A stretch of DNA of 64,000 nucleotides from a bacterium. Its GTDB lineage: Bacteria; SAR324; NAC60-12. Below the pieces are notes generated by a model, which did not search any database, was not told the origin of the DNA, and saw only the letters and a program-made list of their open reading frames with translations. Within the stretch, counting starts at the first letter, position 1, and the number at the start of each line of letters is the position of its first letter. Below are positions 6,431 through 48,012 of the stretch, piece after piece. The stretch is taken from NCBI GenBank assembly GCA_965205865.1, contig CBDBHR010000029.1, forward strand, positions 608,001 to 672,000, written 5' to 3'. The position numbers and the translations under genes are program-made.

Positions 6431-6931
6431 ATATTTTTTTATAGCTGACCTCCTTTGTTGCGCAATTCTCCCTGTCCTGACTTGCTATAGGCTTTGCGCC
6501 GCGTAGTAGTGCTGAAATCATGCCTTGTTGTTTTAGGGAAGGAGAGGATTTCCGCTCGTTTGATTCAAAATTGGCTGTGGGAGGGTTCCCGCTTGATCAA
6601 TACCCTGGGAGGATGTGAAAACGATGGATCCTTGCCGGGAATCTTTTTTCAACGTTATTGAACTGAACGGCTTCTGACTGTCCCCGGATTTGAGCAGATT
6701 TATTGATTTTTTATTTTTTTTGCGAATCCCGCATTTATTTTGCCTTGGGGGGTTGACATTGGGTTTTTGTGTACTAGAATGATGCCATCATTGAGTTGTT
6801 TTAGTCACAGAGAAGGTTCTCGATTGATTGAGCAATATCGTGGGAGGACGTGAAAACGATTGATCTTCCCCGGGAATCTTTTTTAATGATATTTAACTAA
6901 ACGGGTTTTTCAGAGACCTGAATAGTTAGAC

Positions 6932-8747
6932 CCTAGCCGAAAAGGGTTTCGAAAATAGTAAATGTAACCAATTGGATTCTATTTGATTCAATATGACGAG
7001 AAAACGATTATTTTTGTTTTTTATTCGCCCACAGCACAGTTTTTATAGGGAAAAAATCTTTTTTGGACATACTTTCCTCGCCCCTGCTCATATTTCACAC
7101 TCCCCCATTGAATATTCAGGCCGCTTGTTTGAGTTGTCTTTTTTTCAACTCAATCATTTTGCAAAAATTATAGGTTAATGCTTTTTCCAGCAACTCTGCC
7201 CGAACGTTTTCAATCCCTCTGCGCATAACTTGTCCGAAATGGAAACGATGCTTAAGATGAAACATCAACGACTCTGCAGCAGATCTTCCATTTCGTGATT
7301 CCAAATAGATTTCACTTTCCCATTCTTCAATCGGGGTCATCTTTTTTCCCTTTGCCCCACTAATACTAAAAACCTTAACGCCTTTGCCCATCCACTTTTC
7401 TCTGATCGCCTGATTGGCATATCCATCATCAAGGCTCACTTCAGAGGGAATGGTGATGGTGCATCGCAAATGTTCAACAAGGGCAGGGTCGAGTTGCCCT
7501 GAATCAGCAGCATTGCCCTCCGGAGTAATTAACACGGAAATAAAACCATTTCCGCTCCTTCCTAATTGAGGCTTATATCCGATAAGCGCTTCTCGATCTC
7601 CCTTTTGAATATAAGCCGAGCTCTGATCGGAAAGACTCAATACTTTCTCAGTAGAAGGAACCTTCTTTTCTTCAAAAACTCTTTGATGACAGTAGATGAT
7701 TACCCGTTGCAAATTAGAAATATCTTCATTCATCATTTCAATGAGGCGAATCAAACGCGTTTTCCGAGAAGGGGGGAGAAGAGCTTTTTGGGCACGGATA
7801 TCCACCTTTGCCATTTCTTTTAAAAATTTCCCATGAGCGCTTTGAGCTTTCTTCAATAGGGTTTTGTAATGTTTTTTTCGCTTCGTTTTACTGTCCTTTT
7901 TACCTGTCTCAAAAGCAATCATCTTAGAGAGCTTATTCATCTCCTTGATGAGGAAATCAAAATTTCTTTCACTGATCTCAGCGATTCCAAATGTATCAAG
8001 GGAACGCCCTCGATGGTAGCTTCGCTCCACGAGACGAGTCAATATCGACGAATCAGTAGGCCAAGCTGTATTTCCTTTTACAGAGGTGCTATCCAGTTTT
8101 AAAATATCAAAATCGTCCAACTCTTCATCGAGAACCATTCGAATTTGAGCATCGAAAATAAACTGTCTGCTCTCGTTGCTGACAGCATTGACATTATCAA
8201 GGATTGTACTCGCTCCCGGCATTTTCAATCCACGGTTGAGCAGAAGCAGATGCAGTGTGATTGACTCTGAAAGAAATATTTGGGCCGTTTGGGATTTGAT
8301 ACTTCCTAAATATCCCCGAATCATCATAAAAAGGTAGACTAAAAAAGCCGACATCCGAGGACACCCTATTTCCAGCCTCAGTTCTTCCGGCTTCAATTCC
8401 TCATCTTCTACGGGAAGATGAGGAAGCCATGGATTCCGGGCTTCCTGCCATCGTTTATCCTCTAAACGCTCTTTCTTTTTATTTCTTGCGTATTTCTCCA
8501 AATCCTGTTCAATTTTGTCCAATATCTCCGGCTCTCGCTCAGACAATTGATCAAGTTCTGATAAGAAATTTTCAAATTCTGTATCAGGAGCGCTTAAAAT
8601 AAGATGTTTTTCTGCTCGAATGAATGGTTTCATTTTGGGTGCCATAATTCTTAATATTGAAGTTATTCACAGTGATTTCAATGAATTATGGCACTTTTTA
8701 ACCTCAAGTTTAAAGATATAATTCTAAAAAATACCTTTTCGGCTAGG
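6932..8747 (-). mobile_element. ISNCY/IS5-like insertion sequence
   Basis: 14-bp TIR CCTAGCCGAAAAGG at 6932-6945 and 8734-8747; no target duplication seen. Confidence 0.8.
7116..8645 (-). CDS. DDE transposase (ISNCY/IS5-like)
   Basis: LDSTSV..N..WPTD, SLDDGY, RSAAES motifs; similar layout to the transposase at 50567-52136. Confidence 0.85.
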   Translation of the reverse strand: MAPKMKPFIRAEKHLILSAPDTEFENFLSELDQLSEREPEILDKIEQDLEKYARNKKKERLEDKRWQEARNPWLPHLPVEDEELKPEELRLEIGCPRMSAFLVYLFMMIRGYLGSIKSQTAQIFLSESITLHLLLLNRGLKMPGASTILDNVNAVSNESRQFIFDAQIRMVLDEELDDFDILKLDSTSVKGNTAWPTDSSILTRLVERSYHRGRSLDTFGIAEISERNFDFLIKEMNKLSKMIAFETGKKDSKTKRKKHYKTLLKKAQSAHGKFLKEMAKVDIRAQKALLPPSRKTRLIRLIEMMNEDISNLQRVIIYCHQRVFEEKKVPSTEKVLSLSDQSSAYIQKGDREALIGYKPQLGRSGNGFISVLITPEGNAADSGQLDPALVEHLRCTITIPSEVSLDDGYANQAIREKWMGKGVKVFSISGAKGKKMTPIEEWESEIYLESRNGRSAAESLMFHLKHRFHFGQVMRRGIENVRAELLEKALTYNFCKMIELKKRQLKQAA

Positions 8748-9276
8748 ATCGAGCTATTCTTAAACAAACAGACTCCTATGTACCCCCCCGAGGTATACAA
8801 GAATGAAAACAGCTTTGAGGACTGGAAGAACCTGGTCGGCACCGGGCCCTATCAACTGACTGAATTTGTGGAGGGCAGCTCTATGACCTATAAGAAGAAT
8901 CCCAACTACTGGGGGGTTGACGAAAAATTCGGGAACCGCCTGCCCTATATTGACGAGTTAAGGCCCGTGCTGTTAGCAGAAGAGTCAGCACGTATTGCGG
9001 CATTGCGCACGGGTAGGATTGATTTCGTTGGTAACCCGGGAGACGCTCAGATATCGAATGTCGACATTATAGCGAGCCTCCAGAAGAGCAACCCTGAACT
9101 CGAATTTCATTTCGTTAAAGCGAATAAGGGCTCCTTCATATTTAACCAGTCTTTGCCGCCGACGCAGGACGTAAGAGTGCGCAAAGCACTGCAGATGGCA
9201 GTGGACAACGAGGCAATTAACGCTAGCATCCATAAGGGTTTAGGAGTTGTAGAGCCTTATGGGGTTTATATTCAAA

Positions 9277-10972
9277 CCTAAATCCTGCAATTGAATATTT
9301 TGATTGAGTTTCCCCCCACTCTTTGAGAGGTTTTTTTAAAAAAAAGGATTTGAGAGTTGAATTTCCATCAGTCCTTGCTCATAAAGGTTTTTCCGCCCTC
9401 CATTAGATCGTCATATTTTGTGATGATCTGATACCCGCTTTCGCGGGCACAAGATTCAAGACGTACTTCTCCCTGGATTTGGGAATCTACATCTCAGCAA
9501 AATGTATCCACTGGAGTGAAACAAAGGTTCCAGGTCTCTCCAACAGCGACCCATGCATCCCATTGAGCATTGTAAAGTGTTCTTTCCGGAACTCTCAGTT
9601 TTTGTTGACGAGCGCCACTCGTCCATTTTCCTGCCATTCGGACAAGATAGGTGCGCATGGTGGCCGGTTCCCAACGGCGCAGTATTGCGTTACCACTACA
9701 AAGGGCCATCCAGCGCAGCGTGTTGTAAGCGAGTATCGCGCATTGGAACAAGGCACTGTTGGCCCAAAAATCGTCGGTTTTAATCTGAGCCAGCGCAGTT
9801 TGATTTTTTGCTTCCTCAATCCATGTCTCAGCGACCGCCCTTTGGCCATACTCTTTGTGAGCCTGCCAGGGAGTGAGCGCGTCAGTGAGAACATAACAAA
9901 AATAATCGTACTCCTTCATCTCAAAGAGGGTGGCCATCCCTTTGAGTTCCTCCTCTTTCTCCCTGCGTACGGCCATGAATTTTCTTGACCTCCTCCAAGT
10001 TTCACATTGGTGGGAAAACTCACACCCTTCCCAAGCGGGCTGCCCCTTCACTTTTTGCCATTTTTGGGTTTCCAACAACGAGACAAGCCCCTTGAGTTTG
10101 ACCTTGATCAGATAGCCATGGCCTCGTTCTTCGAGGAAATCCAGCAAATCCCCCACAAAAAAACCACTGTCTCCACGAAACAGAGTGCGAGTCCGATTTG
10201 GAAGGTGAGCGAGAAGTTGCCGCATGAATTCAACGACTCCATTGCTGGTATAGGCACTCCCATCACGAAGCCAACCCTGAAGAATCTCCTTTGTCTCTGC
10301 GCAAAATGCCAGCAGAGGATGATACGAAGCTGCACCGCGTTTGTGGGGATTATATCCGACAGACACTCCTTGCTGCTTGCCGTAGGCCGTTTTCACAGTG
10401 GAGTCCACGTCAATCACAAGACAGTGTAACACCCCAACGATGCTTGTCCCACTTCGAAGCGCCTTACGCCAGATACCGGCTCGAATCCGATGGTTCAAGC
10501 TCTCCATCTCATTGATGTTTTTCTGTGTGAAAGTACGCAGTATCCGGCCGAATGTGGTTTCATCCGGAATCCTCAGCCAACCGGCCACACGACTCAAAAC
10601 ACGGTCGTTCCAAACTGTCACAATCGAACGAATCGAACGGGCGCCACCAACAATGCCGACCACCGACAAAATGACCATGTCCACCGCGTCATAAAGACCC
10701 GTGGCGCCACGCCGATGATCTACGGTCTGCTCTGTCTTTGAAACAATCCCTTCTTTGTGAAAAAATTTGACAACCGGAATCAAGCCTGCTTGCGCGGTCA
10801 GGTCTCTGCCTCCCTGGCTGATATGGATGTTTTTTGCTGTCGTTCTTGCCGATCTTGCGCTACGTTTGTTTTTCATGGTAATGGTGATCTCTTAAAATGT
10901 TGATTCTGGTGTTAACTATTTGAGTATATTACCATTTCCATGTTTGATTGTCATCTAATTGCAGGATTTAGG
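9277..10972 (-). mobile_element. IS1380-family IS, copy A (1696 bp)
   Basis: TIR CCTAAATCCTGCAATT; 5-bp target duplication TCAAA. Confidence 0.95.
9494..10876 (-). CDS. IS1380-family transposase
   Basis: IDVDST, YHPLLAF, FRGDSGF, AETWIEEAKN motifs. Confidence 0.93.
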   Translation of the reverse strand: MKNKRSARSARTTAKNIHISQGGRDLTAQAGLIPVVKFFHKEGIVSKTEQTVDHRRGATGLYDAVDMVILSVVGIVGGARSIRSIVTVWNDRVLSRVAGWLRIPDETTFGRILRTFTQKNINEMESLNHRIRAGIWRKALRSGTSIVGVLHCLVIDVDSTVKTAYGKQQGVSVGYNPHKRGAASYHPLLAFCAETKEILQGWLRDGSAYTSNGVVEFMRQLLAHLPNRTRTLFRGDSGFFVGDLLDFLEERGHGYLIKVKLKGLVSLLETQKWQKVKGQPAWEGCEFSHQCETWRRSRKFMAVRREKEEELKGMATLFEMKEYDYFCYVLTDALTPWQAHKEYGQRAVAETWIEEAKNQTALAQIKTDDFWANSALFQCAILAYNTLRWMALCSGNAILRRWEPATMRTYLVRMAGKWTSGARQQKLRVPERTLYNAQWDAWVAVGETWNLCFTPVDTFC

Positions 10973-11703
10973 TCAAAATCTTACAGATTGGGTCTGGCCA
11001 TATAAAGAATGGCCCGACGAGGTCAAGCGTGAGTATGAGTATCGCCCGGCAGATGCAGAAGCGTTGCTTGATGCGGCCGGATATCCACGAGGCGCCGACG
11101 GCTATCGATTCAAGCTCACGCTGAGCAATCTTGTGAGGTTTGAATCGACCTATGCAGAAATCGTCGTAGAGTTCTTCCGCGCCATTGGCGTTGATGCCGA
11201 GATCGTTGTTACTCCTGAAGCTGAGCAGTCCGCTGCCTTTGGAGCGGACACGCACGAGTGGCACATAATGCGTGGTCAGGGTATGGGGGAACGTCGCCCA
11301 GGGCTCTGGTTTGCAGGGCTCGCCACCCAAAACGTGCGTGACGAGAGCTACAGCAAGGTGAAGGACTCGCGTATCGAAACCTTTTATAATAACGCCAACA
11401 ATACTACGGACCTTGAGGAGTATTTTAGCAACATTCGAAAGATCGATGAGATCTTTGTAAGGGAGCACTTTGGCCTGGTTAGACCTGTAAGCCCCTTATT
11501 TCAGGTGGCCAAGCCGTGGGTGCAGGGTTGGCACGGTGAATGGGGTATGGGATACGCCGAGCGTCATACCCACTTTTCTCGCCTCTGGATTGATAGTGCG
11601 CTGAAGAAAGAAATGATGGGAAACTAGCAGTACACTCCTGTGGAGCCGGGGGGTGGTCGCTTGTGAGCGCGCTTCCCAGCTCCCATACTTGGGGCGCAAA
11701 CAC

Positions 11704-12723
11704 GTGAGTACCTATATCATCAGGCGGTTGTTGCTCATAATCCCCACGCTGTTCATACTGACCATCATAGTCTTTGCTACGGTCCGCTTTATCCCCGGCG
11801 ATACAATAGACGCAATGGTGGCTCAGATGGAAGCTGAGGGCAATCCGGGTTCCGTGAGTGCCAGAGACCGCGAAACTCTTGAGCGTATTATGGGACTGGA
11901 CGTGCCTGTCTACGTGCAGTATGGACGCTGGATCGGAGTGTTGTCGACCCCTGACTGGCGGCTTACCGGTGAGTCCCACTTTAGAGGTCTCCTCCAGGGC
12001 ACCTTTGGCCACTCACTGTATGGCGGAGGCACTACGGTAGAGGAGAGCATAATCGGGAGATTGCCAGTCACCATTGAGCTTGGTGTTCTGGCAATTGTAA
12101 TTGGTCTCGTCATCGCCCTGCCCGTCGGCGTCTACTCGGCGATCCGCCAGGATACCACCGCCGACTACGTCGGGCGAACCGTCGCCGTCATCGGCTTGGC
12201 AACGCCGAACTTCTGGCTGGCAACTATGGTCCTGCTCTACCCGGCACTCTGGTGGGGCTGGTCGCCACCGGTAGAGCTGATCCCCTTCAAGGAAGACCCG
12301 CTGGGAAATCTCGGGATGTTCATCATTCCGGCCGTGATTCTGGGGACGGCCCTTGCTGCCAGCACCATGAGGATGACGCGCACCATGATGCTGGAGGTGC
12401 TCAGGCAAGACTATATCAGGACGGCTTGGTCGAAGGGGCTCAGGGAGCGGATAGTTATAATAAGACACGCCATCAAGAATGCCCTCATCCCGGTAGTGAC
12501 GCTCGTCGGCCTGCAGCTCCCCATCCTGATCGGGGGCTCCGTTATCTTGGAGCAAATATTCGCTCTGCCGGGGATAGGCCGTCTGTTTGTGGTTGCGCTC
12601 GATGCAAGAGACTACCCGATCGTCTCCGCAATAAACCTGATTTTTGCTACCGCGGTTTTGGGGATCAATCTCATGATCGACCTGATTTACTCTTACTTGG
12701 ACCCCAGGATTCGGTATGAATGA
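11704..12723 (+). CDS. peptide ABC transporter permease (DppB/OppB-like)
   Basis: YIIRRLL start (GTG), EAA-like loop DYIRTAWSKGL, terminal LDPRIRY. Confidence 0.92.
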   Translation: MSTYIIRRLLLIIPTLFILTIIVFATVRFIPGDTIDAMVAQMEAEGNPGSVSARDRETLERIMGLDVPVYVQYGRWIGVLSTPDWRLTGESHFRGLLQGTFGHSLYGGGTTVEESIIGRLPVTIELGVLAIVIGLVIALPVGVYSAIRQDTTADYVGRTVAVIGLATPNFWLATMVLLYPALWWGWSPPVELIPFKEDPLGNLGMFIIPAVILGTALAASTMRMTRTMMLEVLRQDYIRTAWSKGLRERIVIIRHAIKNALIPVVTLVGLQLPILIGGSVILEQIFALPGIGRLFVVALDARDYPIVSAINLIFATAVLGINLMIDLIYSYLDPRIRYE

Positions 12724-13672
12724 GACACCATCCCCTATCCGTGAGCCCAAACGACGGGGCCGGTTTGCTGATTTTTGGATCAGGCTTTTCAAGGAGAAGC
12801 CTCTTGGCACTGCCTGCGGGGTGATCATCTTGCTCTTGATTTTGGTGGCGATCTTTGCCGATGCGCTGGCGCCCTATTCCTTTAGGGAAATGCACCTGAT
12901 GGACAGGCTTACAGGCCCATCATCCCAATATCTGCTGGGGACCGACCAGATGGGACGAGACTTGTTCAGCCGCCTGATCTTCGGGGCGCATCTCTCCGTC
13001 TTTGTCGGTCTGGCCGCCACCATGCTCAATGTCGTCATCGCTGTCCTCATCGGTGGCATTTCAGGATTCATCGGGGGTAAACTGGATCTGGCGGTGCAGC
13101 GCTTTGTTGATGCCTGGATGGCTTTTCCGGGACTGTTGCTCTTGCTGACCGTCATGTCCATTGTGGGAAGGGATCTCTTCCAGATCATCGTGGTGCTGGG
13201 GATCGCCGGAGGCATCAGCGGCTCGAGAGTCATCAGAAGCGCCGTGATCGCTATCAAAGAGAATGACTATTTTCTGGCAGCCCAGGCCGTGGGCACCCCC
13301 ACGAGCAGAATCCTGAACCACCATGTGCTGCCCAATATTATGGCACCCGTCATCATTGTCTTCTCCATTAACATCGGGGGGGTGATTATGTCTTTGGCTG
13401 CTCTGGGCTTCCTCGGCTACGGTCTGCCACCCACCATTCCTGACTGGGGCGGCATGCTCAGCCGGGAAGGGCGCCGGTACATGGAACAGGCCCCCTGGCT
13501 GGCGCTCTGGCCGGGGCTGTGCCTGACGATTGTCGTCTACTCTTTCAACATGTTCGGCGATGCGGTGCGGGACCTGCTCGATCCCCGACTGCGGGGCGGG
13601 CAGGGCAGCTACGGCGCCGCAAAGAAACGCAAACGAGGCCTCCTCGCCAGATTGATCAACCCCTTCTCTTAG
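12716..13672 (+). CDS. peptide ABC transporter permease (DppC/OppC-like)
   Basis: LGTDQMGRD, HVLPN, GDAVRDLLDPR motifs. Confidence 0.93.
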   Translation: MNETPSPIREPKRRGRFADFWIRLFKEKPLGTACGVIILLLILVAIFADALAPYSFREMHLMDRLTGPSSQYLLGTDQMGRDLFSRLIFGAHLSVFVGLAATMLNVVIAVLIGGISGFIGGKLDLAVQRFVDAWMAFPGLLLLLTVMSIVGRDLFQIIVVLGIAGGISGSRVIRSAVIAIKENDYFLAAQAVGTPTSRILNHHVLPNIMAPVIIVFSINIGGVIMSLAALGFLGYGLPPTIPDWGGMLSREGRRYMEQAPWLALWPGLCLTIVVYSFNMFGDAVRDLLDPRLRGGQGSYGAAKKRKRGLLARLINPFS

Positions 13673-15965: not shown

Positions 15966-16062
15966 AAAAGGTGTCAGGCCTTTGATTATTTGATTAGAAA
16001 GTGATTAGGAATGAGTCCAGTTTTTTTGCCCCCTTTTCATTTAATCAAAGGCCTGACCCTTT
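15966..16062. repeat. inward-facing pair of GGGTCAGGCCTTTGATTA motifs (REPIN-like mini element)
   Basis: AAAGGTGTCAGGCCTTTGATTA ... TAATCAAAGGCCTGACCCTTT with an AT-rich spacer. Confidence 0.75.
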
Positions 16063-16074
16063 CGGATTTTTTTT

Positions 16075-16566: not shown

Positions 16567-16589
16567 AAAAGATAATGATCATTATCTTA

Positions 16590-17477: not shown

Positions 17478-17648
17478 TTAGTGACATTCGTAACTGTCCC
17501 CGGATTTTCAGAAAAAGAAATTGGCAATTTTTTAAAAATGGGATAAGGCTTACCCTCTGTAGGGCTGTCGTTAAAAACATCTGACCCGATTAAATCTACG
17601 ACAATTTTTTATTCACCAGAGAGAAGTTCAAAGTGAGAAATCAAACAC

Positions 17649-19015: not shown

Positions 19016-20615
19016 GTCATCGTAAAGAACTGACTTATAGTGGTTTCCAGCCACCTTTCGTCATTCCTCCGGTACAGATCCGGACGTGCGCTGCTAACGC
19101 ATCCGGCTCCTGCTTCGAGTCAGACGCTCAAACGTTGCCGTTTGGCGCACCCTGCTTAAACCGCTCTCTGATTTTACCGGCCTCTGAGTTCCGAACACAG
19201 GAGGGCAAGCAGAATTCCTCTCAGCCAAGTCCCTTTGCTCCACAGGCTCCGTTGATTTCCTTTGCATTATTACTCTCTACAAATGATCTCATTGTTCGCC
19301 GCTTCATGCCGGGTAGAAATACGGCGCGCGCATGTTTAGGTCAACGACTTCCAATGTATCCCCCGTTTCCGGTTTCGTGGCAAAAGGGCGTCAGACCCTG
19401 CATCACGTTTCCGCAAGCCCCCCTCTCATCCCGGACGGTCGGATTTCCCGAGTCCGGTTGGCAGCAACAGCGTTTCCCCAGAAACCCTTCCCACCCAATC
19501 CGAAGCTTAAGCACTCGCCTGCATTCACCCCTGGAGTGAGTGATTTGATCTCCAGCTCGACATTCTTTGTGGTGACACTCTTGACCGACACAAGTTCGGC
19601 AGTGGTTCATGAAATGCCCGCCATTTACCGAGAGCCCCTTTGCCTTTTAGAGGTGTTACCTCCAAAAGGGAGATGTCCAAGCATCCCCTCGACCAGCGTT
19701 ACCCGGTCTTCATCGCTCATACGGACTCATGCGCCAGACCAAAATCCTCCTGCCGATTTCGGTGTTACCCTATACGGTAGGTCCTTGCAGGTTATTGCGA
19801 GTCCCTGCTGGAAGTTGGCCCTTCCCGACGTTATCTCTGTGGATCTTTCCCTGGATGCTTGGATCCATACTCCGGCTCCCTCCAAGGTGCCTGTTCCCAT
19901 TACTTCCCTTGGAACTTCGGCCTTCCCCGAGTAGCGAGCGGGTCGGCGGTTGGGCAACACACCGTCAAGCCAATTCACGACGGAAGTCTCTTTCGGAGCT
20001 GCAATCATTCACTAATGTTCAGGCCTCCAGGTTTGCTCGCCACCCTGTTGGCTCCCACTATGGACTCTCGTCCAAAGCAGACGGTGACTTTTACTTCCGG
20101 GCAGAACGCAAAGCAGTTACCTGCTAAGCGCACCGGATATGCTAGTCGCCCGAATGGGAAACTGACGACAGAGAGACTTTCACTCTCCAAAATCCACAGC
20201 CTTGTCGGCTGCTCACGCTACTACGAACTTGTCCGACTTCCTGAAGACGTAGATATCGGGGTTATTTATTAATTTTCCCGATCCGACTACCAATAGAATG
20301 TTGACAGTCGTCTTCAGGATCTCCCAGGTTCCGGTCAAGAAACTTCCACACATGCACCGGGTCTTTGACTCCGCCAGGCTCAGCCGAGACTCACGCTAAC
20401 GCCTTCGGTTGATATTGCCTTCCCCACCAAACCACAAGGTCAGCGCCTGAAACTATGATTTCGGAGCTCAATACCGAGCCTATGTTCTCCCCTGTCAACG
20501 CTTAGCGCCTATCCTTGCGAATAACCACTCATGACTCGGGGACTCGGCGGGTCGTTACTGCCTTACCGAGTAAGAGACTTTCACTCTCTATTTCTTGCCA
20601 GCTTTCCTGGCGCAC
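19016..20615 (-). mobile_element. ORF-less group II intron (692 nt once the nested intron is removed), outer intron of a twintron
   Basis: Starts GTGCG, ends TTTACGATGAC; near-identical to the RNA parts of 23162-25118 and to 41696-42387. Confidence 0.9.
19308..20215 (-). mobile_element. second, unrelated ORF-less group II intron (908 nt) nested in the outer intron
   Basis: 5' (G)TGAGC...GGAGAGTGAAAGTCTCTC; domain V-like AACCGGACTCGGGAAATCCGACCGTCCGGGAT; 3' end CTACCCGGC; removing it restores the outer sequence TAGCGATGAAG. Confidence 0.85.
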
Positions 20616-20721
20616 GGCCTGACCCCCTTTTTTATCAGTGGCCTGATTGCACACTCGTTTATTCCGACACAAAAATTCGGCGGCCATTTCGGATAAAATG
20701 TTGTTGAACTGAGCCGAGGTG

Positions 20722-22764: not shown

Positions 22765-22852
22765 CGTATCTCCAATATAATTTATGAAAATGTGAATGAG
22801 CATTGAGAAAGCAAGAATTTGTTGTTTCCAACTAGTCTCCTTAAGCATTGTA

Positions 22853-23146
22853 CCTAAATCCTGCAATTAGATGACAATCAAACATGGAAATGGTAATATA
22901 CTCAAATAGTTAACAGCAGAATCAACATTTTAAGAGATCACCATTTCCATGAAAAACAAAGGTAGCACAAGATCGGCAAGAACGACAGCAAAAAACATCC
23001 ATATCAGCCAGGGAGGCAGAGACCTGACCGCGCAAGCAGGCTTGATTCCGGTTGTCAAATTTTTCACAAAGAAGGGATTGTTTCAAAGACAGAGCAGACC
23101 GTAGATCATCAGCGTGGCGCCACGGGTCTTTATGACGCGCTGGACA
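22853..23146 (+). mobile_element. truncated IS1380 copy (left end only)
   Basis: TIR plus the start of the transposase; similarity stops at the AAAAAGGGGTCAGGCC motif. Confidence 0.88.
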
Positions 23147-23161
23147 AAAAGGGGTCAGGCC

Positions 23162-25118
23162 GTGCGCCAGGAAAGCTGGCAAGAAATAGAGAGTGAAAGT
23201 CTCTTACTCGGTAAGGCAGTAACGACCCGCCGAGTCCCCGAGTCATGAGTGGTTATTCGCAAGGATAGGCGCTAAGCGTTGACAGGGGAGAACACAGGCT
23301 CGGTATTGAGCTCCGAAATCATAGTTTCAGGCGCTGACCTTGTGGTCTGGTGGGGAAGGCAATATCAACCGAAGGCGTTAGCGTGAGTCTCGGCTGAGCC
23401 TGGCGGAGTCGAAGACCCGGTGCATGTGTGGAAGTTTCTTGACCGGAACCTGGGAGATCCTGAAGACGACTGTCAACATTCTATTGGTAGTCGGGTCGGG
23501 AAAATTAATAAATAACCCCGACATCGACGTTTTCAGGAAGTCGGACAAGTTCGTAGTAGCGATGAAGCGGCGAACAATGAGATCATTTGTAGAGAGTAAC
23601 AATGCAAAGGAAATCAACGGAGCCTGTGGAGCAAAGGGACTTGGCTGAGAGGAATTCTGCTTGCCCTCCTGTGTTCGGAACTCAGAGGCCGGTAAAATCA
23701 GAGAGCGGTTTAAGCAGGGTGCGCCAAAGGGCGAAGAGGAACCCCCATCTTCAATTCAACAATCTCTTTCATCACATCAACCCTGACTTACTGCGGAGAG
23801 CTTACTTTGATCTCAATCGCAACTCAGCGGCGGGAGTGGACGAGGAGACCTGGAATGAGTATGGCATAAATCTCCTGGAGCGGATTAACGATCTGCACGG
23901 GAGGATCCACCAAGAACGTTATCGTCCTCACCCTTCTCTGCGAGTGTGGGTTCCTAAACCGGATGGCCGTCAAAGGCCAATCGGAATAGCCGCACTTGAA
24001 GACAAGATCGTACAACAAGCCCTTGTTTGGACGTTGGAATCGATCTATGAGGAGGATTTCCTTGGGTTTAGTTACGGGTTCCGACCCGGACGAAGCCAAC
24101 ATCAAGCCTTAGACGCTTTGTATGTGGCCATTACCCAACGGAAAGTGAGCTACATCTTAGATGCGGATATTCAAGGATTTTTCGACACAATTCAGCATGA
24201 TTGGATGCTGAAATTTATCGAGCATCGAATCTCCGACAAAAGGATTCTGCGTTTAGCAGAGAAAACGTTGCGCGCCGGAGTCATCGAAGAGGGGAAGTGG
24301 TCTGAAACGGTGGTCGGAACACCACAAGGTTCGGTAGTGTCTCCAATCTATTCAAATATCTACCTGCACTATGTTTTAGATCTATGGGTTAATCAATGGA
24401 GAAGGCGGGAAGCTCGGGGGGAAGTTTACATCATTCGCTATGCGGATGATTTCGTCGTGGGTTTTCAATATTCTGAAGATGGCCAGAAATTTAATCGCCA
24501 ACTAAGAGAACGCCTCTCTCAATTTGGACTGACTTTACATGAAGAGAAAACACGCCTCATCGAGTTCGGGCGATTTGCCGCCGATAACCGGGAAAAACAA
24601 GGTCTGGGAAAACCGGAAAGTTTCGACTTTTCAGGATTCACTCATGTCTGTGACACTCGGATAAAGGATGGAAAATTCAAGCTCACCCGTCTCACCATTT
24701 CCAAAAGGTTGCGAAAGAAGCTCAAAGAGATCAAACTTGAAGCGAAACGCAAACGTCATGAAAATGCGCATGAACAAGGAAAATGGCTCAGGTCTGTTTT
24801 AAACGGTCTGTACAACTACTATGGAGTCCCCGGCAACCGGAGTTCCTTGAATGCTTTTCGCACGGAAATCCATCGGACGTGGTTCAAATCACTAAGACGG
24901 AGGAGTCACAAAGCAAAGAGGATGAACTGGGAACGCTTCAAAGTACTGGTCAAACTACACATTCCTTCTGTAAGGACAACCCACCCGTATCCGAATCAAC
25001 GTTTGAGCGTCTGACTCGAAGCAGGAGCCGGATGCGTTAGCAGCGCACGTCCGGATTTGTACCGGAGGAATGACGAAAGGTGGCTGGAAACCACTATAAG
25101 TCAGTTCTTTACGGTGAC
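23162..25118 (+). mobile_element. group II intron with RT/maturase ORF
   Basis: GTGCG start, domain V GAGCCGGATGCGTTAGCAGCGCACGTCCGGAT, ...GTGAC end; boundaries confirmed by comparing three copies. Confidence 0.95.
23602..25014 (+). CDS. ltrA: group II intron reverse transcriptase/maturase, no HNH endonuclease domain
   Basis: RPIGIAALEDKIVQ, SYGFRPGR, GTPQG, RYADD, domain X; ends HPYPNQRLSV; start uncertain. Confidence 0.93.
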   Translation: MQRKSTEPVEQRDLAERNSACPPVFGTQRPVKSESGLSRVRQRAKRNPHLQFNNLFHHINPDLLRRAYFDLNRNSAAGVDEETWNEYGINLLERINDLHGRIHQERYRPHPSLRVWVPKPDGRQRPIGIAALEDKIVQQALVWTLESIYEEDFLGFSYGFRPGRSQHQALDALYVAITQRKVSYILDADIQGFFDTIQHDWMLKFIEHRISDKRILRLAEKTLRAGVIEEGKWSETVVGTPQGSVVSPIYSNIYLHYVLDLWVNQWRRREARGEVYIIRYADDFVVGFQYSEDGQKFNRQLRERLSQFGLTLHEEKTRLIEFGRFAADNREKQGLGKPESFDFSGFTHVCDTRIKDGKFKLTRLTISKRLRKKLKEIKLEAKRKRHENAHEQGKWLRSVLNGLYNYYGVPGNRSSLNAFRTEIHRTWFKSLRRRSHKAKRMNWERFKVLVKLHIPSVRTTHPYPNQRLSV

Positions 25119-25130: not shown

Positions 25131-25262
25131 TTACCAATTGAAAGGGTTGATCAATCAGGCTAGGAGGCCTCGTTTGCGTTTCCTCTTTGTGGCACCATAA
25201 CTTCCATGAGCACCTCGCAGCTGCGGATCGAGCAAGTCTCTCACCACATCACCGAACAGGTT
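25131..25262 (-). pseudogene. 3'-terminal fragment of a DppC-like permease
   Basis: Translates NLFGDVVRDLLDPQLRGAHGSYGATKRKRKRGLLA*LINPFNW. Confidence 0.75.
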
Positions 25263-25475
25263 GAGAGTAGACGACAATCGTCAGGAAAAGCCCCGGCCAG
25301 AGCGCCAGCCAAAATTTCACGTAAGTTATTTTCTGATTGACATTGAACCAACATACCGGTAATTAGGAAGGATCTTTCCCGAATGCCATTCACGGGATCA
25401 AGGGTATCGGGAAGATTGACACACACGATTATTTCACGCAGATACTGCGTAACTTTAAACTAAAGGAGTCCAACA

Positions 25476-26760: not shown

Positions 26761-27000
26761 TCAGAACCCCATCTCTTTCTTCAGTTCCTGATCGACCCAA
26801 ATTAAGGCGAGCCAGGGTTTGTTCACAGTTATGCCGAGATCAGTTTCCCCGTTGTGGCCCTTGATCCACGGCTGGGTGGCACCGAACGGGGGTGCCAGTG
26901 GCCCCCTGATCACCCACAGCATCTCGGCGACGCGCAGGTCGGCCTTCCGCACCCACTCCTTCTGTTCCTCCAGCGTGGTAGCGGCCAGCGCGTTCTCGAA
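26761..27000 (-). pseudogene. C-terminal fragment of a third family-5 substrate-binding protein
   Basis: QPWIKGHNGE...IWVDQELKKEMGF matches the C-termini of the two other SBPs; breaks at AAAAGGGACAGGCC. Confidence 0.8.
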
Positions 27001-27002
27001 GG

Positions 27003-27087
27003 AAAAGGGACAGGCCCCTTTATTCTCTTTTTCTCTAATCAAATGAAGGAATCCCTTGCAAATAATTAGTAACTGTCCCCGGATTTT
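27003..27087. repeat. inward-facing GGG(G)ACAG motif pair (REPIN-like)
   Basis: AAAAGGGACAGGCCCC ... GTAACTGTCCCCGGATTTT. Confidence 0.65.
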
Positions 27088-27111
27088 GGTAGCGAAAGGG
27101 ACAAAAACGAC

Positions 27112-29465: not shown

Positions 29466-29478
29466 GCCTTCACTCCCT

Positions 29479-36838: not shown

Positions 36839-37081
36839 TCATCTTAACTCCTCAGGGGCGAGTGCTTGTCTCATCCTGGACTTGATCCTCGCTGCTCTCT
36901 GTGTCAGTCCTTGAAAATACTGGGCAATCCTGCCCTTCCCGGAACGAAAAGCATGGGATTCAGAGCGCATCATTTCAAGGAGTGATGCGCACTCGGCCAA
37001 TTGAAAATCAGGGATATGGGAAAGTTGTCTCTGGTCCTCATTCAATTGATAAAATTCAGTCCACTTAACAAGAAGATCCAC
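36839..37081 (-). CDS. hypothetical protein whose 3' end is repeated nearby
   Basis: 80-aa ORF; its 3' end (ARIKSRMRQALAPEELR) recurs at ~36698-36780 and inverted at ~41026-41106. Confidence 0.4.
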   Translation of the reverse strand: MDLLVKWTEFYQLNEDQRQLSHIPDFQLAECASLLEMMRSESHAFRSGKGRIAQYFQGLTQRAARIKSRMRQALAPEELR

Positions 37082-40677: not shown

Positions 40678-41405
40678 TATGTCCCATTCTCTGTTCGTTC
40701 GCGGTTGATTTCCTCGATGAAATCGTCGAAATCCGGGTCATCCGCCGATCGTCCGAAGGCCTTGAGCCATGGATGAGAGGATTCCAACCCTGGAATCTCT
40801 ATATCGCTTCTCCAGTGCGGTATTTTCGATCTGATGATCTCAATTATGTCTCAATCGTGCTATGATTGGCAAGTTTTCATTCTTCTCTGTTTCTTCGGCG
40901 GCTATCTTTTATTGGACGCAAAAATTCGCAGATATCCACTGCATCGTTATAGATGCTTGCCTCTCTTTCAAAAAAAGCGCTCTCTTCACTCAAGAGAATT
41001 TCTAAATGATTGATGCACTTGCTCCAATTTCAAGGATTGACACAGAGAAGAGCGAGGATCAAGTCCAGGATGACACAAGCACTCGCCCACTGAGGAGTTA
41101 AGATGAGCAAAAAAATCTATTGACATCCTCTAATATTTTATATAGACAGGATACTGAATGGGATCATGAAATTCACCAGGTTTTTGCCATCATAATCTCC
41201 CATTGGTCGAAATGACACGTTTTTTCTTTAAATCACGGGAAATCTCAAAGAGCCATGAAATCTACCAGGTTTTTGCCATCAAAGTTAATGAGTTGCCGTA
41301 TTTAAAGAAAAGCTTGAGAAACATTTCCAGAACGAGTAAACATATTTCCAATTTCCAAGGACAAAAGAGCAATTCAGAGAGTCACCATATTAAAAATAAT
41401 AAAGA

Positions 41406-41670
41406 TTGACAAAAGGGTAAAATGAGAGTAAGTTCAAGCACTCAGTTCTAAGTTCCCAGTCACAATTTCCAAGTTTCAAATCCCAAGTTCATTGGGTTCT
41501 ACACCGTGGTGTCATCTCGATGGGGCCGTCGGTACGCCCGATACGCGCACGGTGGTCCGCATACGGCGCATCGGCGTACCGGAAGCGGCGCCTGGTCTTC
41601 AGGGAGGGATCCTTAAGATTCCTCGTTCCAAATTCCAAGCCCCAAGTCCTACGTTCCAAGTTTCAGGAAC
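41406..41670 (+). promoter_or_regulatory. sigma70 promoter + heptamer tract + structured leader, copy 2
   Basis: TTGACA-17bp-TAAGTT; heptamers; core with an extended GC-rich hairpin; more heptamers after the core. Confidence 0.7.
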
Positions 41671-41695
41671 AGAAGGGCAAAAAAGGGGTCAGGCT

Positions 41696-42387
41696 GTGCG
41701 CCAGGAAAGCTGGCAAGAAATAGAGAGTGAAAGTCTCTTACTCGGTAAGGCAGTAACGACCCGCTGAGTCCCCGAGTCATGAGTGGTTATTCGCAAGGAT
41801 AGGCGCTAAGCGTTGACAGGGGAGAACATAGGCTCGGTATTGAGCTCCGAAATCATAGTTTCAGGCGCTGACCTTGTGGTCTGGTGGAAAAGGCAATATC
41901 AACCGAAGGCCTTAGCGTGAGTCTCGGCTGAGCCTGGCGGAGTCAAAGACCCGGTGCATGTGTGGAAGTTTCTTGATCGGAACCTGGGAGATCCTGAAGA
42001 CGACTGTCAACATTCTATTGGTAGTCGGATCGGGAAAATTAATAAATAACCCCGATATCTACGTCTTCAGGAAGTCGGACAAGTTCGTAGTAGCGATGAA
42101 GCGGCGAACAATGAGATAATTTGCAGAGAGTAACAATGCAAAGGAAATCAACGGAGCCTGTGGAGCAAAGGGACTTGGCTGAGAGGAATTCTGCTTGCCC
42201 TCCTGTGTTCGGAACTCAGAGGCCGGTAAAATCAGAGAGCGGTTTAAGCAGGGTGCGCCAAACGGCAACGTTTGAGCGTCTGACTCGAAGCAGGAGCCGG
42301 ATGCGTTAGCAGCGCACGTCCGGATCTGTACTGGAGGAATGACGAAAGGTGGCTGGAAACCACTATAAGTCAGTTCTTTACGGTGAC
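41696..42387 (+). mobile_element. ORF-less group II intron (692 nt), deletion derivative of 23162-25118
   Basis: GTGCG...GTGAC ends; ORF replaced by the junction GCGCCAAACGGCAACGTTTGAG. Confidence 0.92.
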
Positions 42388-42459
42388 TTTGATTAAATTG
42401 TATTTTGTTAAATTCTATGGTTAGCATTGCTCCAGACTTGAGAGCAACCGAGAGGAAAA

Positions 42460-43304
42460 ATGGCAAGAAAACGAAGAGTTCATTAACCGGGAGCGGTCTA
42501 TCATGTGATGCTTCGTGGCAATGGGGGGCAGGGCTTTTTTTTGATGATGATCGTTTTTATTTTGGAGAGTTACTTTTGGAGGGAGTGGCGCGTTTTGAAC
42601 ATCGTATCCACGGGTTTTGTTTTATGGGCAATCATGTTCACTTGGTGGTTCAAGTGGGTGTGATTCCGCTGTCTCGCATTGTTCAAAATGTGTCATTTCG
42701 TTATACTCGCTGGATCAACAAAAAACAAAAACGGATGGGAAATTTGTTTCAGAGGCGCTATAAAGCGATTTTAGTGGATGCCGATCAGTATTTATTAGAG
42801 TTAATTCGCTATGTTCACCTGAATCCGATTCGGAACGGGCTCGTCAACGATCCGAAACAATATTTTTGGTCAAGCCATGCCGTGTATACGGGAAAGAGAA
42901 AGATGCCTTGGGTTCATACAGAGTGGGTTCACGCTCAATTTTCCAGGCACTCAGGTCATGCTCGACGGATGTATCGTCGCTATGTTGAGGAAGCTATGGA
43001 GGACACCCTACCCCCCGAGTTCGAAAAAGGGAATAAAGAAGGAAGGATTTTGGGAGATGATCACTTTGCGGAAAGTGCATTACAACAAGCGGGAGAGCCC
43101 ATTCACCAAACATTGGAGTTGGAAGTCTGGGGAGAGCGTTGTGGTCGAGATGGTGTCACCTTAAGCAATGCCATTCAAATTTTGCTAAAACGCACCAAAA
43201 CAGACAAAGATTTGGTAAACAGAATGAAAGAAATTGAGGAAAAACTATTAATCTCTTTCGGGTCTAACTCGCCGCAGCCGCTCAGCGTACCGTTGCTGCG
43301 TTGA
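42460..43304 (+). pseudogene. REP-associated tyrosine (Y1/HUH, RAYT-type) transposase with an early stop and frameshift
   Basis: True start MARKRRVH*PGAVYHVMLRGNG, frame change in a T run at ~42535; MGNHVHL (HUH), LFQRRYKA, RYVHLNP, WSS. Confidence 0.88.
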
Positions 43305-43435
43305 AAAAAAGATAATCCGACAAAATACTCCGCTCGAGCGAAGCGAAAGTCGAGCCTCAACGAGAGAGCATGCTTCAGGATAGTTTATTTGAATAATGAA
43401 ACGTCAAATGAAATAATAAAAGGCCTGACCCCATT

Positions 43436-43810
43436 TTGCGCCATATCCTGATTCTCCATGTCCTGCCCAATATTATGGCGCCGATCATCATCATCTTCTC
43501 GATCAACATTGGCGGCGTCATCATTGCCGAGGCGTCGCTGAGCTTCCTCGGATTCGGGTTACCCCTCAAGATTCCCAGTTGGGGAGGAATGCTCAGCCGG
43601 GAAGGGCGTCAGTTCATGGAGATTGCCCCCCGGCTGGCGCTCTGGCCGGGGCTTTGTCTGACTCTTGTCGTCTACTCCCTCAACATGTTCGGCGACGCGG
43701 TGAGAGACCTGCTCGATCCCCGGTTGAGGGGCAGTGGGGGCCGTTATAGCACCACGATGAAACGCAAACGAGGCCTCCTGGCCCGACTGATCAACCCTTT
43801 CAATGGGTAA
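43436..43810 (+). pseudogene. C-terminal fragment of a DppC-like permease
   Basis: Begins mid-protein (HVLPNIMAP) right after CTGACCCCATTT. Confidence 0.88.
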
Positions 43811-45100: not shown

Positions 45101-45184
45101 TCTCTGAAACAACCCGTCGAATATCTGAAAGAATGAGTGTGATATCCTCGACATTAAAGGAAGGGAGCATTCTTTTGAGCAAAT

Positions 45185-45562
45185 GTGTATTTTCTGGCAG
45201 CCAGGGCCGTGGGCGTCCCCATGTACCAAATCCTCTTCCGGCATGTGCTGCCCAACATCATGGCGCCCATGATCGTCATCTTCACCGTGACCATTGGCGA
45301 CGTGATCATTGCCGAGGCCTCCCTGAGCTTCCTCGGTCTTGGGCTTCCCCCCGATGTCACCAGCTGGGGGGGGATGCTCAGTTGGGAAGGACGCCGATAC
45401 ATGGAGAGGGTCCCGGCGCTGGCTCTCTGGCCCGGGCTTTCCCTGTGCATCGTTGTCTGGGGCACCAACTTGTTCGGCGACGCGTTGAGAGACCTGCTCG
45501 ACCCCAGCCTGAGGGGTGGTGTCGGGCGCTTTGGAGCCGCGAAGATGAAGAAGGCTCTATGA
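45185..45562 (+). pseudogene. C-terminal fragment of a DppC-like permease
   Basis: YFLAARAVG...RHVLPN...GDALRDLLDP; N-terminal part absent. Confidence 0.85.
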
Positions 45563-46563: not shown

Positions 46564-46587
46564 AAATCCGGGGACAGTTACTAATTT

Positions 46588-47523
46588 TTAAATGCTGGGA
46601 TCGGAATCTTTATCTTGGAGGAGAACACGGAGCCGTTCGACTTCCGCAAGAGCTTTTTCTTCTCTTTGCAAGGCGTCTTCTTTTTGTTGCCGCTCTTTTT
46701 CTTTTTGTTGTCGCTCTTTTTCTTCTCTTTGCAAGGCGTCTTCTTTTTGTTGTCGCTCTTTTTCTTCTCTTTGCAAGGCGTCTTCTTTTTGTTGTCGCTC
46801 TTTTTCTTTTTGTTGTCGCTCTTGTTGGAAGCTTTTCAGGAGGAACGGCTGGTAGAGGGGATCATCGATTAATTTTTCAAAGGCCACCTGTTTTTCTAAA
46901 TCCTGAAGACGAAATGCGAATCGATCCAAAACCCTGGAATGAATCACGCCGGGCTCTTTGCTCTTCATCCTTTCATAAACCCCCTGCTCATTGAGAGCAT
47001 AGAAGGCGGTATGCTTGCGCAAACGGTCTAATATATAATATTCCGCTACCCCCGCTTTGGCGTATTCTTCTTTTTTGTGAATCGTATCCCGTTCCACCTC
47101 CGAGGGAGTCGAGTCGGATAAAAACTCTATACAGAGGTCACACACCCCATGAAACGAACGATCCAACTGTTTGGCCTCGACAGGATTGGAGTGAAGAATC
47201 ACGGCCAGATCCGGTTTGCGAATACTCACCTTTTTCTTTCCCAGTTCCAAACGAAAGCCCATTTCCAATGCCATGATTCGCCCTTGAGGGAAGACGGTTA
47301 AATATTCTTCTAATAAGCGCAAGAACCATTGATACAGGGAGATGCTTAAAAAATCTGGCATGGGCTTTTCCTCCAAGAGTCCATTGTTCCATTCATATTG
47401 ACTATCCGGGTGTTCATAGTACGTCTTCCAATACTCTGCCTCACTCACCCTGAGGGGCTCCCTGGCAGATGGAGGAAACCGTGTAGGAGTGGTGTTGTTT
47501 TTGATGGATTCTAAAGAAGCCAT
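46588..47523 (-). CDS. Uma2-family endonuclease with a repetitive coiled-coil tail
   Basis: YEWNNG, RKPDL, DLCIEFLS.S, KKEEYAKAGVAEYYILD; tandem ERQQKE/DALQREEK repeats. Confidence 0.88.
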   Translation of the reverse strand: MASLESIKNNTTPTRFPPSAREPLRVSEAEYWKTYYEHPDSQYEWNNGLLEEKPMPDFLSISLYQWFLRLLEEYLTVFPQGRIMALEMGFRLELGKKKVSIRKPDLAVILHSNPVEAKQLDRSFHGVCDLCIEFLSDSTPSEVERDTIHKKEEYAKAGVAEYYILDRLRKHTAFYALNEQGVYERMKSKEPGVIHSRVLDRFAFRLQDLEKQVAFEKLIDDPLYQPFLLKSFQQERQQKEKERQQKEDALQREEKERQQKEDALQREEKERQQKEKERQQKEDALQREEKALAEVERLRVLLQDKDSDPSI

Positions 47524-48012
47524 GAGGTCCTCAATGGGAATGAGAAGTGAAATTTGTGGTCTTTTTAACAGGATAACATAGTGTGAGGAGGACTGCAATT
47601 TTCCATTTTTGTAATTCGGAGGCGCATTCATCGGTGAGTTGCTATATTCAAACAAAAAAAGCTTGACCCCTTCTGAAGCCTCAAAGAGGGTTAAAGAATT
47701 TCTGCTGGTCTTTTGTTTTCTTTTTTGATAATTTTCAACGAAAATGCCTTTAGTTGAAGGTTTTATTTCAATTTCGCTACTTATTTAGCCGAAAGTCATG
47801 TAAAATATTATATTCTCCCCAGAGGATTTTTAGAAACTGTCAACTGGGAATGGAAAAGTGCAAAAAATGTTGACTTCTGTATCTTAACATGAAAAAGTCT
47901 TTTCGTTGATCATCAGAAGACACTCCTGAATGAGTCGCCCTACTTAAAAAAAGTTTGACAAACGTTTGCGGAGCGATTATAGTTTCTACCAAGGATAAAA
48001 GGGCAAATGCGA

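Follow-up and report, generated by a model that had tools for sequence, protein, structure and literature searches.

A probable TIRtron repeat family in a SAR324 bacterium, entered by a group II intron and abutted by truncated genes

A short motif, GGGG(A/T)CAG, recurs in a 64-kb stretch of DNA from a SAR324 bacterium (contig CBDBHR010000029.1, positions 608,001 to 672,000; hereafter the window), where it likely marks the family of terminal inverted repeats (TIRs) of a TIRtron, a unit in which such repeats flank the gene of a TIRYT transposase. On this reading, which we consider likely to be correct as a whole, the TIRYT gene is dead, the unit lies amid a decaying cluster of dpp-like operons, and its repeats have served both as homing sites of a group II intron and as the points, at their tips, from which deletions of neighboring genes started. 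An earlier note on the same DNA had proposed that the motif belongs to a DNA shuffling system, in which a transposase associated with repetitive extragenic palindromes (REPs), that is, a REP-associated tyrosine transposase (RAYT), assembled a genomic island by cutting and joining pieces of genes. For the GlmS encoded in the window, the nearest named relatives belong to SAR324 cluster bacteria, with 74% identity. The family assignment, the architecture and conservation of the repeats, the structure of the intron, its pairing with the 5' exon through exon-binding site 1 (EBS1), including the covariation of that pairing, and the positions of the junctions are presented as observations, and the census of repeats refers to the 64-kb window.

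The GGGG(A/T)CAG motif and its two variants

GGGGWCAG has 10 matches in the window compared with 3.23 +/- 1.94 expected, and none of 100 shuffled sequences reached 10, indicating that the motif does recur as the earlier note claimed. The motif family comprises two variants, termed C-type (eight copies) and A-type (four copies; Table 1). The C-type consensus is AAAAGGGGTCAGGCC, followed by TTT(G/T)ATTA or CCTTT, and is laid out as an A-run, then GGGGTCAGGCC, then either of these endings. Its 14-mer AAAGGGGTCAGGCC gives 16 matches with up to three mismatches, where 5.85 are expected, and eight with up to two mismatches (15967, 16050, 20616, 23148, 27003, 41682, 43422, and 49714), the last of which lies inside a degenerate IS1380 copy and is taken as a chance match. 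The A-type consensus is AAATCCGGGGACAGT(T/C)A, with four copies (6674-, 17490-, 27069-, and 46564+) against 0.05 expected; these copies have 15 invariant bases, and their similarity ends beyond about 22 nt. Fourteen positions had been listed for the motif, of which 11 are solid. The copy at 47661 is plausible, with three mismatches to the consensus 14-mer and 13 of 14 bases identical, as read by eye, to the copy at 41685 (c3), and the positions 17581 and 18688, absent from the AAAGGGGTCAGGCC matches even at three mismatches, are no better than chance. Two further exact GGGGWCAG matches, at 49717 and 62416, lie within insertion sequence (IS) elements. The housekeeping flanks of the window contain no exact match, as had been stated, but this says little because only about 0.7 would be expected there.

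The TIRYT pseudogene and its link to the motif

TIRtron units were named in 2013 by Di Nocera, De Gregorio, and Rocco, who gave the repeat consensus GGGGWSAS and described the TIR families as moderately abundant and present as single copies, dimers or groups (PMC3733652). The TIRYTs correspond to RAYT group 1 of Bertels et al. 2017 (PMC5581495) and to TnpA-Y1 subclass 2.1. Quentin et al. 2018 (PMC6006769) equate subclass 2.1 with the TIRYTs of Di Nocera et al. and report it in 14.9% of strains. Its members are described as long, as having a Y---NP motif and a tail of the Bac_DnaA_C, HTH_23 or HTH_28 type, as having no REP-like hairpins nearby, and as flanked by inverted repeats most of which share GGGG[AT][CG]A[CG]. 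The GGGG(A/T)CAG motif of the window fits the published consensus GGGGWSAS.

The gene between the two TIRtron repeats retains the HVH and YVHLNP motifs, which align with those of its relatives. Its reading frame is interrupted by a TAA at codon 9 (42484-42486) and shifts within a T-run at about 42534-42543, and, compared with the intact 328-aa relative P0002, 46 aa of the DnaA_C-like helix-turn-helix (HTH) region are deleted, in agreement with the earlier description of the local RAYT as a pseudogene. Relatives numbered 539 proteins at E<=1e-3 among 1319 candidates and are about 311-328 aa long; among the matches listed, a hand count found PF01797 together with PF08299 (DnaA C-terminal HTH) in 112 of 120. 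P0002 is the closest intact relative, and its Bac_DnaA_C domain (PF08299; 30.3 bits, just under the cut-off of 31.5) occupies residues 223-287, spanning the stretch deleted from the window copy. The C-terminal HTH (Bac_DnaA_C, HTH_23 or HTH_28) is not intact in the window TIRYT, and we read the missing domain as decay of this copy and not as exclusion from the TIRYT family. No second TIRYT gene or fragment was found in the window.

A tblastn search with P0002 against plasmids returned 11 records at 30-38% identity, of which nine were examined; a second R. rubrum plasmid and an Acetoanaerobium record were left out. GGG(G)WCAG lies 49-118 nt upstream of the start codon in all nine homologues, and an inverted downstream partner is present at six of the nine loci, the three Skermanella loci having upstream direct copies only. 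The repeat on the Sporomusa plasmid begins with GGGGTCAGGCC, exactly as the window C-type, and the repeat on the P. aeruginosa plasmid begins with AAAGGGGACAG, which is the A-type core. The motif at nine of nine homologues, together with the fit to the published consensus, supports the proposal that the motif is the site of the transposase, a link that is also already known. Blastn of the TIRtron against plasmids gave no match, and a search of genome contigs with P0002 matched 113 stretches, six of which were confirmed, all of them distant. At a locus of a Clostridia metagenome-assembled genome (L003) whose TIRYT shows 37% identity, GAAACGGGGGACAGACCCCCGTTTC palindromes stand on both sides of the gene and occur about 14 times in 14 kb, with six further places, several of them as dimers; all lie between open reading frames (ORFs) or beside tRNA genes, and their folds reach -13 kcal/mol. 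A spacer between two tRNA genes of this genome (L003:2130) holds a single copy, AAATGGGGACAGTTACT, of which 13 consecutive bases are those of the window A-type.

Architecture and folding of the repeats

The outer side of a repeat, here called the tip, is the A-run with GGGG, and the inner side runs from CAG onward. Some copies stand alone, others form dimers, and two pairs enclose genes, one the TIRYT gene and the other a Uma2-family gene. Four units are made of inward-facing pairs, namely the TIRtron (C/C), the dimers D1 (C/C) and D2 (C/A), and the unit around the Uma2 ORF (A/C). The left repeat of the TIRtron is split by an intron; with the intron removed, it aligns in inverted orientation with the right repeat over about 26-50 nt, giving inverted repeats of about 28 nt with the GGGGWSAS signature at their outer ends, and the GGGGTCAG core of the left TIR then lies 83 nt upstream of the TIRYT ATG. 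The RAYT-like gene is thus enclosed by inward-facing copies, as had been claimed, once the intron is removed, and the Uma2 ORF is also enclosed, by an A-type copy on one side and the copy at 47661 on the other. In the C-type repeat c1 the tip is fused to a truncated IS1380 element, and 8 nt separate the inner side from the stop of dppC fragment 5. The A-type side of D2 lies about 25 nt from the stop of a beta-lactamase-family gene. Repeat u3 of D1 is a hybrid with a C-type core and the A-type outer flank AAAATCCG, and it ties the two variants together.

Table 1. Positions of the features discussed, counted from the first base of the window
Feature	Position	Strand	Evidence or remark
TIRtron: left repeat (intron-split), TIRYT pseudogene, right repeat	41679..43437	+	inverted C-type alignment, gene between
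TIRYT pseudogene (RAYT group 1 / TnpA-Y1 subclass 2.1)	42460..43304	+	Y1_Tnp PF01797 E 1.1e-10
C-type repeat c3, 5' part, left TIR of TIRtron	41679..41695	+	3' part resumes at 42388
C-type repeat u1, right TIR of TIRtron	43408..43437	-	tip abuts dppC fragment 3
C-type repeat c1, 5' part	23146..23161	+	3' part CCTTT from 25119
C-type repeat c2, 5' part	20616..20632	-	3' part from 19015 downward
Dimer D1: C-type u2 (+) and C-type u3 (-)	15966..16072		u3 tip abuts GH127 fragment
Dimer D2: C-type u4 (+) and A-type (-, core 27073-27080)	27003..27095		u4 tip abuts SBP fragment
A-type repeat, single	6674..6691	-	
A-type repeat, single	17490..17507	-	8 nt from inverted repeat of IS5-family element (16586-17481)
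A-type repeat, left boundary of Uma2 ORF	46564..46581	+	starts at stop codon of PhyH-family gene
Probable C-type repeat	47645..47673	-	inverted relative to 46564; 5 nt upstream of Uma2 start
Uma2-family ORF, 355 aa, between repeats 46564 and 47645-47673	46588..47655	-	PF05685 E 4.2e-16
Intron copy c1, full length	23162..25118	+	RF02005 167.8 bits; IEP ORF 23602-25014; EBS1 loop 23342-23350
Intron copy c2, ORF-less, c3-type derivative with nested element	19016..20615	-	RF02005 167.9 bits
Intron copy c3, ORF-less, 692 nt, inside left TIR	41696..42387	+	RF02005 151.8 bits
IS1380-family fragment, first 305 nt, ends at c1 tip	22842..23146	+	comparison with full copies
GH127 C-terminal fragment, at u3 tip	16072 (approximate)..16566	+	PF20736 profile positions 45-94; PF20737
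SBP_bac_5 C-terminal fragment, at u4 tip	26770..27000	-	tblastn against window SBP, E 8.9e-10
dppC fragment 3, aa 198-318, at u1 tip	43442..43810	+	
dppC fragment 5, last ~58 aa, collinear with SBP fragment	25134..25338	-	tblastn
dpp-operon leader/promoter, left of TIRtron	41385..41635	+	blastn and alignment

Dimer D1, with inverted arms of 26 nt that are 85% complementary, folds as one long hairpin of the type seen in REPINs (-20.8 kcal/mol, z -5.8), and no such long hairpin was found on folding D2 (z -0.85). Single C-type copies fold into a weak hairpin with WCAG in the loop and a stem in which the A-run and the Gs pair with Cs and a T-run (-1.7 to -7.6 kcal/mol in six of seven copies), and folding of the four A-type copies gave no hairpin. 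Overall, the folding energies range from 0 to -7.6 kcal/mol, and one of 11 window copies beats 98% of its shuffles. The description of the motifs as non-hairpin is accurate for the A-type and only roughly so for the C-type, most copies of which form a weak hairpin. Several other classifications of the repeats were rejected. The inverted repeats of Tn3-family elements also begin with GGGG; in the window the A-run belongs to the inverted repeat, and there is no target duplication. Ends of the IS3 type (TG...CA) would place the gene breaks on the wrong side, and composite units reaching from c1 to 27073 or from c2 to 15966 had no supporting evidence. Among neighboring features, the Uma2 ORF contains seven tandem 21-nt units (46632-46826, in overlapping 69-nt windows) that form a repetitive charged C-terminal tail. 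A direct repeat of about 75-90 nt occurs in two copies (6607-6680 and 6842-6918) between an IS1595 and an ISNCY element, the former copy ending at an A-type repeat and the latter at the ISNCY inverted repeat.

A group II intron in three C-type repeats

The sequence that follows the motif copies at 20616, 23146, and 41679 is identical because a group II intron begins there, as indicated by three matches to the Rfam model RF02005 (152-168 bits). The three copies are real occurrences of the motif, and their description is corrected here in that they are the 5' junctions of one intron. The intron begins with 5' GTGCG and ends with 3' AC. The 470-aa intron-encoded protein (IEP) of c1 matches TIGR04416 with 339.8 bits (cut-off 300); RVT_1 was its only domain match at E<=1, with no endonuclease domain detected, and RF00029 (domain V/VI) scores 28.8 bits on this copy, below the cut-off of 40. 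Copy c2 carries in domain IV a nested, ORF-less element of 908 nt (19308-20215, -) in the same orientation as the intron, which begins with (G)TGAGC...GAGTGAAAGTCTC and matches RF02003 with 33.2 bits (E 3.1e-5, below the cut-off). The nested element is probably a second group II intron, which would make c2 a twintron.

The three introns have a common 16-nt 5' exon, AAAAAGGGGTCAGGC(C/T), and different 3' exons, each of which starts right after the last intron base, indicating retrohoming into three targets and not segmental duplication. Bases -7 to -1 of the 5' exon, (U)CAGGCC, pair with the GGUCUG(G) of the EBS1 loop, which in c1 reads GUGGUCUGG. This loop is the variable hairpin loop of the Rfam model, and it covaries with the exon in plasmid relatives from three other lineages, namely Rhizobiales (four loci; EBS1 loop CUUGU, 5' exon ACAAG), Cupriavidus (UGAUCG and CGAUUA), and Caballeronia (ACGUUAU and GUAACGU). 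The three intron-occupied repeats come closest to the 14-mer (0, 1, and 1 mismatches); C-type copies that hold no intron diverge upstream of CAGGCC, and the A-type copies lack the GCC and none of the four is occupied. Endonuclease-less group II introns prime from nascent strands at replication forks, and the intron of the window would be expected to prime in the same way. The presence of the intron in a repeat probably disables that copy as a TIRYT substrate.

Other group II introns home to repeated or mobile DNA, such as RmInt1 in ISRm2011-2 and the class C introns that follow terminators or attC sites. The intron of the window resembles these in being endonuclease-less, in having a multicopy target, and in including ORF-less derivatives that are mobilized in trans; it differs in its target, a TIRYT terminal repeat that it splits at an insertion point 3 nt past the GGGGTCAG core. 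Four Rhizobiales plasmid introns (L007:915, L008:916, L012:4001, and L013:4001) are preceded by GGGGTC(A/G)GAACAAG, and this resemblance of their 5' exons to the TIRYT core would be compatible with a whole intron lineage that targets TIRYT-like repeats; no TIRYT gene was found near these introns within the flanks examined. A limited literature search found no published group II intron within a TIRYT repeat. A P. putida group II intron adjoins REPs in two of nine copies, according to a published table (PMC1525189).

Truncated genes at the repeat tips

At four of the eight C-type repeats, the distance between the tip and a truncated gene end is 1-4 nt. In a test of eight tips against 10 listed truncated ends, none of 200,000 random placements matched this number, a figure that is indicative only because the list of truncated ends was partly compiled after the junctions had been seen. 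All four breakpoints claimed in the earlier note, at the IS1380, GH127, DppC, and substrate-binding protein (SBP) fragments, hold, and the repeat tips are real junction points. At the position of the c1 breakpoint the full IS1380 copies read ...GGACA then TGGTC. At every one of these junctions, a normal intergenic context is kept on one flank of the repeat unit, after a stop codon or within a leader, and the opposite tip is fused to the truncated neighbor. In a tblastn search within the window, no other repeat copy had a complementary half of one of these genes beside it. A Pfam search of 62 small flank ORFs gave no family, and blastx of seven flank regions against the window ORFs no significant non-self match, for the outer flanks of c2 and u2, of the A-type copy at 6678, and of the copy at 47661. 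A ParB_N fragment beside c2 was not counted, as its break lies about 117 nt from the repeat tip. At least four breakpoints, at about 20750, 25338, about 44170, and 45182, carry no motif.

The dpp cluster and its insertion sequences

The flanks of the TIRtron are parts of a dpp-like operon. The 250 nt at its left are homologous to the region upstream of the SBP gene at 36064 and to 49870-50200; this leader was found at the DNA level only, and its orientation is that of a dpp-like operon starting there. The right flank, oriented like the leader, consists of a 3' portion of dppC. Between these two flanks the TIRtron occupies the place of an SBP gene, of dppB, and of the 5' 60% of dppC, all of which are missing. 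At 27000-25134 (-), the SBP fragment (27000-26770) is likewise followed by dppC fragment 5, with an epimerase segment at the expected place of dppB. Such collinear flanks point to in-place deletion and not to assembly from unrelated pieces. In all, the window contains two complete dppC genes and three fragments, with 63-77% protein identity, and three leaders.

The dpp-like paralogue cluster extends over 8688-13672, 27112-36064, 25134-27000, 41385-43810, and 45182-45553. Its copies are each trailed by a different accessory gene (GNAT, beta-lactamase family, and PhyH family), and the dppB of the second operon is frameshifted (29479-30440). The leader copies (36100-36420, -; 41385-41635, +; 49870-50200, +) are about 250-300 nt each and contain a TTGACA box, runs of TTCCAAGT-like repeats, and a conserved GC-rich block. 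An Rfam search gave no match at E<=1 for the 36-kb leader, and a window-wide scan at gathering cut-offs gave none at the other two; the leader could be a regulatory RNA or a protein-binding array. A repeat of about 120-170 nt with 87-93% identity (36608-36919 and 41028-41193) is in tandem upstream of the second dpp operon and inverted upstream of the third leader.

Insertion sequences are represented in the region by at least 12 copies or fragments. A 1703-bp element of the IS1380 family is present in three near-identical complete copies (9271-10973, -; 31095-32792; 33386-35088), which are ordinary insertions with 5-bp target duplications, two of them within one SBP gene; the same family is represented by the 305-nt fragment at 22842-23146 and by a degenerate copy at about 48000-49770. 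Solo end fragments at 379-496 and 5284-5393, which match 63758-64000, derive from an IS1182-like element (62134-63711), are 90-98% identical, and lie beside the shikimate kinase gene and at the left edge of the island.

Discussion

The locus may be understood as three layers in a set of clustered dpp-like operon paralogues that at least 12 IS copies are destroying. In the first, a dead TIRYT gene lies between inverted repeats, with C-type and A-type copies dispersed nearby. In the second, an endonuclease-less group II intron homes to the C-type repeat through the pairing of EBS1 with (U)CAGGCC. In the third, deletions would start exactly at a repeat tip, fusing it to a truncated gene. The TnpA of IS200/IS605 elements and the TnpA-REP of E. 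coli act on single-stranded DNA, recognize their repeat, and cut and rejoin the DNA through a tyrosine. By analogy with this biochemistry, a TIRYT supplied in trans could cut single-stranded DNA at the repeat tip and rejoin it to nearby DNA, and intact relatives such as P0002 do exist. We give even chances to the tip deletions having been made by such an enzyme, acting from an intact TIRYT in trans. The fuller version, in which the four tip junctions are TIRYT footprints left by cutting and rejoining in trans, with occasional bracketing of cargo such as the Uma2 gene, and in which an intron lineage parasitizes the repeats, is put forward only tentatively. With or without the enzyme, the outcome is erosion of neighboring genes and not construction of an island.

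Several points weigh against assigning the locus to a TIRtron with intron homing and tip deletions. The window protein scores 59 bits with the NCBIfam model for REP-associated tyrosine transposases (NF047646), below its cut-off of 80 bits. The A-type copies have no adjoining TIRYT gene in the window, and they were assigned to the family because of the shared core, the pairing with C-type copies in D2 and around the Uma2 gene, and the hybrid u3. The outer flanks of c2, c3, u2, and the copy at 47661, and those of all four A-type copies, are not at truncated genes, and the list of truncated ends used in the tip test was partly retrospective. No convincing EBS2 partner was found for bases -7 to -13 of the 5' exon, the candidates having been rejected for overlap with the EBS1 pairing or for lying within conserved helices. 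Cleavage of DNA by a TIRYT is argued by analogy, and we know of no documented case of adjacent deletions made by Y1 HUH transposases. For subclass 2.1 itself, Quentin et al. note no formal evidence of mobility (PMC6006769).

The tip junctions might instead have arisen by ordinary homologous or illegitimate recombination between repeats or hairpins, with no catalysis by a TIRYT, the repeats simply having been inserted or having stood at both ends of each deletion. The many short repeats of the region, the strong hairpin of D1, and the dead local TIRYT are consistent with this explanation, and after a deletion between two copies a single one would remain, flush on either side with the flanking DNA, which is the situation at the TIRtron. 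The explanation would, however, require that every lost gene, four times over, had contained another repeat copy, between repeats that are only about 25-30 nt long and diverged, and at c1 it would need a partner inside IS1380, where the full copies of that element have no such repeat at the corresponding point. We consider it somewhat unlikely, and leave the remaining probability to other routes.

The earlier model, in which HUH-driven cutting and joining moved unrelated gene pieces and built the island much as Helitrons or ISCR elements capture genes, is in our view improbable. It draws on the four gene fragments that end within 4 nt of a motif tip, on the Uma2 gene bracketed by two inverted copies, and on the crowding of at least five dppC copies or fragments with 63-77% protein identity into 40 kb, and it has in common with Helitrons and ISCR elements an HUH enzyme and gene fragments at the element end. 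However, the window contains no Rep-helicase or IS91-type gene, its fragments are collinear local remnants, and both the TIRtron flanks and 27000-25134 are collinear dpp parts, as expected from in-place decay. Complementary halves of the fragments were not found at other motif copies, at least four breakpoints carry no motif, and the repeats of the Clostridia locus sit between intact-looking ORFs. Considering the collinear flanks, the breaks without a motif, and the at least 12 IS copies, the claim that the island was assembled from gene pieces is not supported.

Hardly credible is the explanation that the motif is a group II intron target or a terminator hairpin with no functional tie to a tyrosine transposase: three copies are indeed intron junctions, c1 lies 8 nt after a dppC stop with a 7-bp stem and T-run on the sense strand of that gene, and the Rhizobiales introns have a GGGGTC(A/G)GAACAAG 5' exon with no TIRYT gene nearby, but the signature occurs at a similar upstream distance in nine of nine plasmid TIRYT loci, no intron gene was noticed among the annotated features of those 2-kb plasmid stretches, the motif is published as the TIRYT repeat consensus, and the A-type copies and four C-type copies carry no intron.

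The assignment to a TIRtron agrees with the published descriptions of these units (PMC3733652, PMC6006769, PMC5581495) in the long RAYT-like Y1 HUH protein, which bears HUH and Y---NP motifs and, in intact relatives, a DnaA_C-type HTH, and in the inverted repeats, which show GGGGWSAS a fixed short way from the gene and also occur as singles and dimers. As far as the available portions of those descriptions extend, the window differs in that its gene is a pseudogene without the HTH, two repeat variants pair with each other, and an intron occupies three repeats, and also in the repeat pair around the Uma2 gene and the four tips fused to truncated genes. The classical GTAG REPs, with their REPtrons, RAYTs, and REPINs, were reportedly described by Nunvar in 2010, Ton-Hoang in 2012, and Bertels and Rainey in 2011. 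Their repeats are imperfect palindromes of 20-40 nt tagged GTAG or CGTC. The window shares with these a domesticated-looking Y1 transposase, inverted short-repeat flanks, and an inverted doublet that folds as a hairpin (D1, though not D2); it differs in having no GTAG/CGTC tag and in single copies that are weakly hairpinned or not at all, and the TIRYT protein, with its HTH tail, is about double the length. In IS200/IS605 elements the TnpA is short, the hairpins are sub-terminal, and terminal inverted repeats are lacking. They share with the window the Y1 HUH chemistry and probably single-stranded DNA substrates, whereas the window has terminal inverted repeats and relatives of about 311-328 aa.

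The system is therefore not new, TIRtrons and TIRYTs having been named in 2013, and the locus is a real instance of a known but little-studied system, for which the designation as a DNA shuffling system is unsupported. Modestly new leads are the targeting of the repeat by an intron, the pairing of the two variants, including that around the Uma2 gene, and the four tip-flush deletions. TIRYTs are the largest RAYT-like group. A defined 16-nt repeat tip serving four deletions as their junction and a group II intron as its homing site, two repeat variants whose pairing hints at left and right ends, and a repeat pair around a non-transposase gene are leads for this group. If the deletions were not made by an enzyme, the locus would be an ordinary mobile-element graveyard; if they were, TIRYT repeats would be agents of gene loss and not neutral repeats. 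Should the specialization of the intron be true, a group II intron lineage would parasitize TIRtron repeats, splitting them in the DNA, and should the tip junctions be TIRYT footprints, they would be the first genomic evidence of TIRtron repeats as live breakage-and-joining sites.

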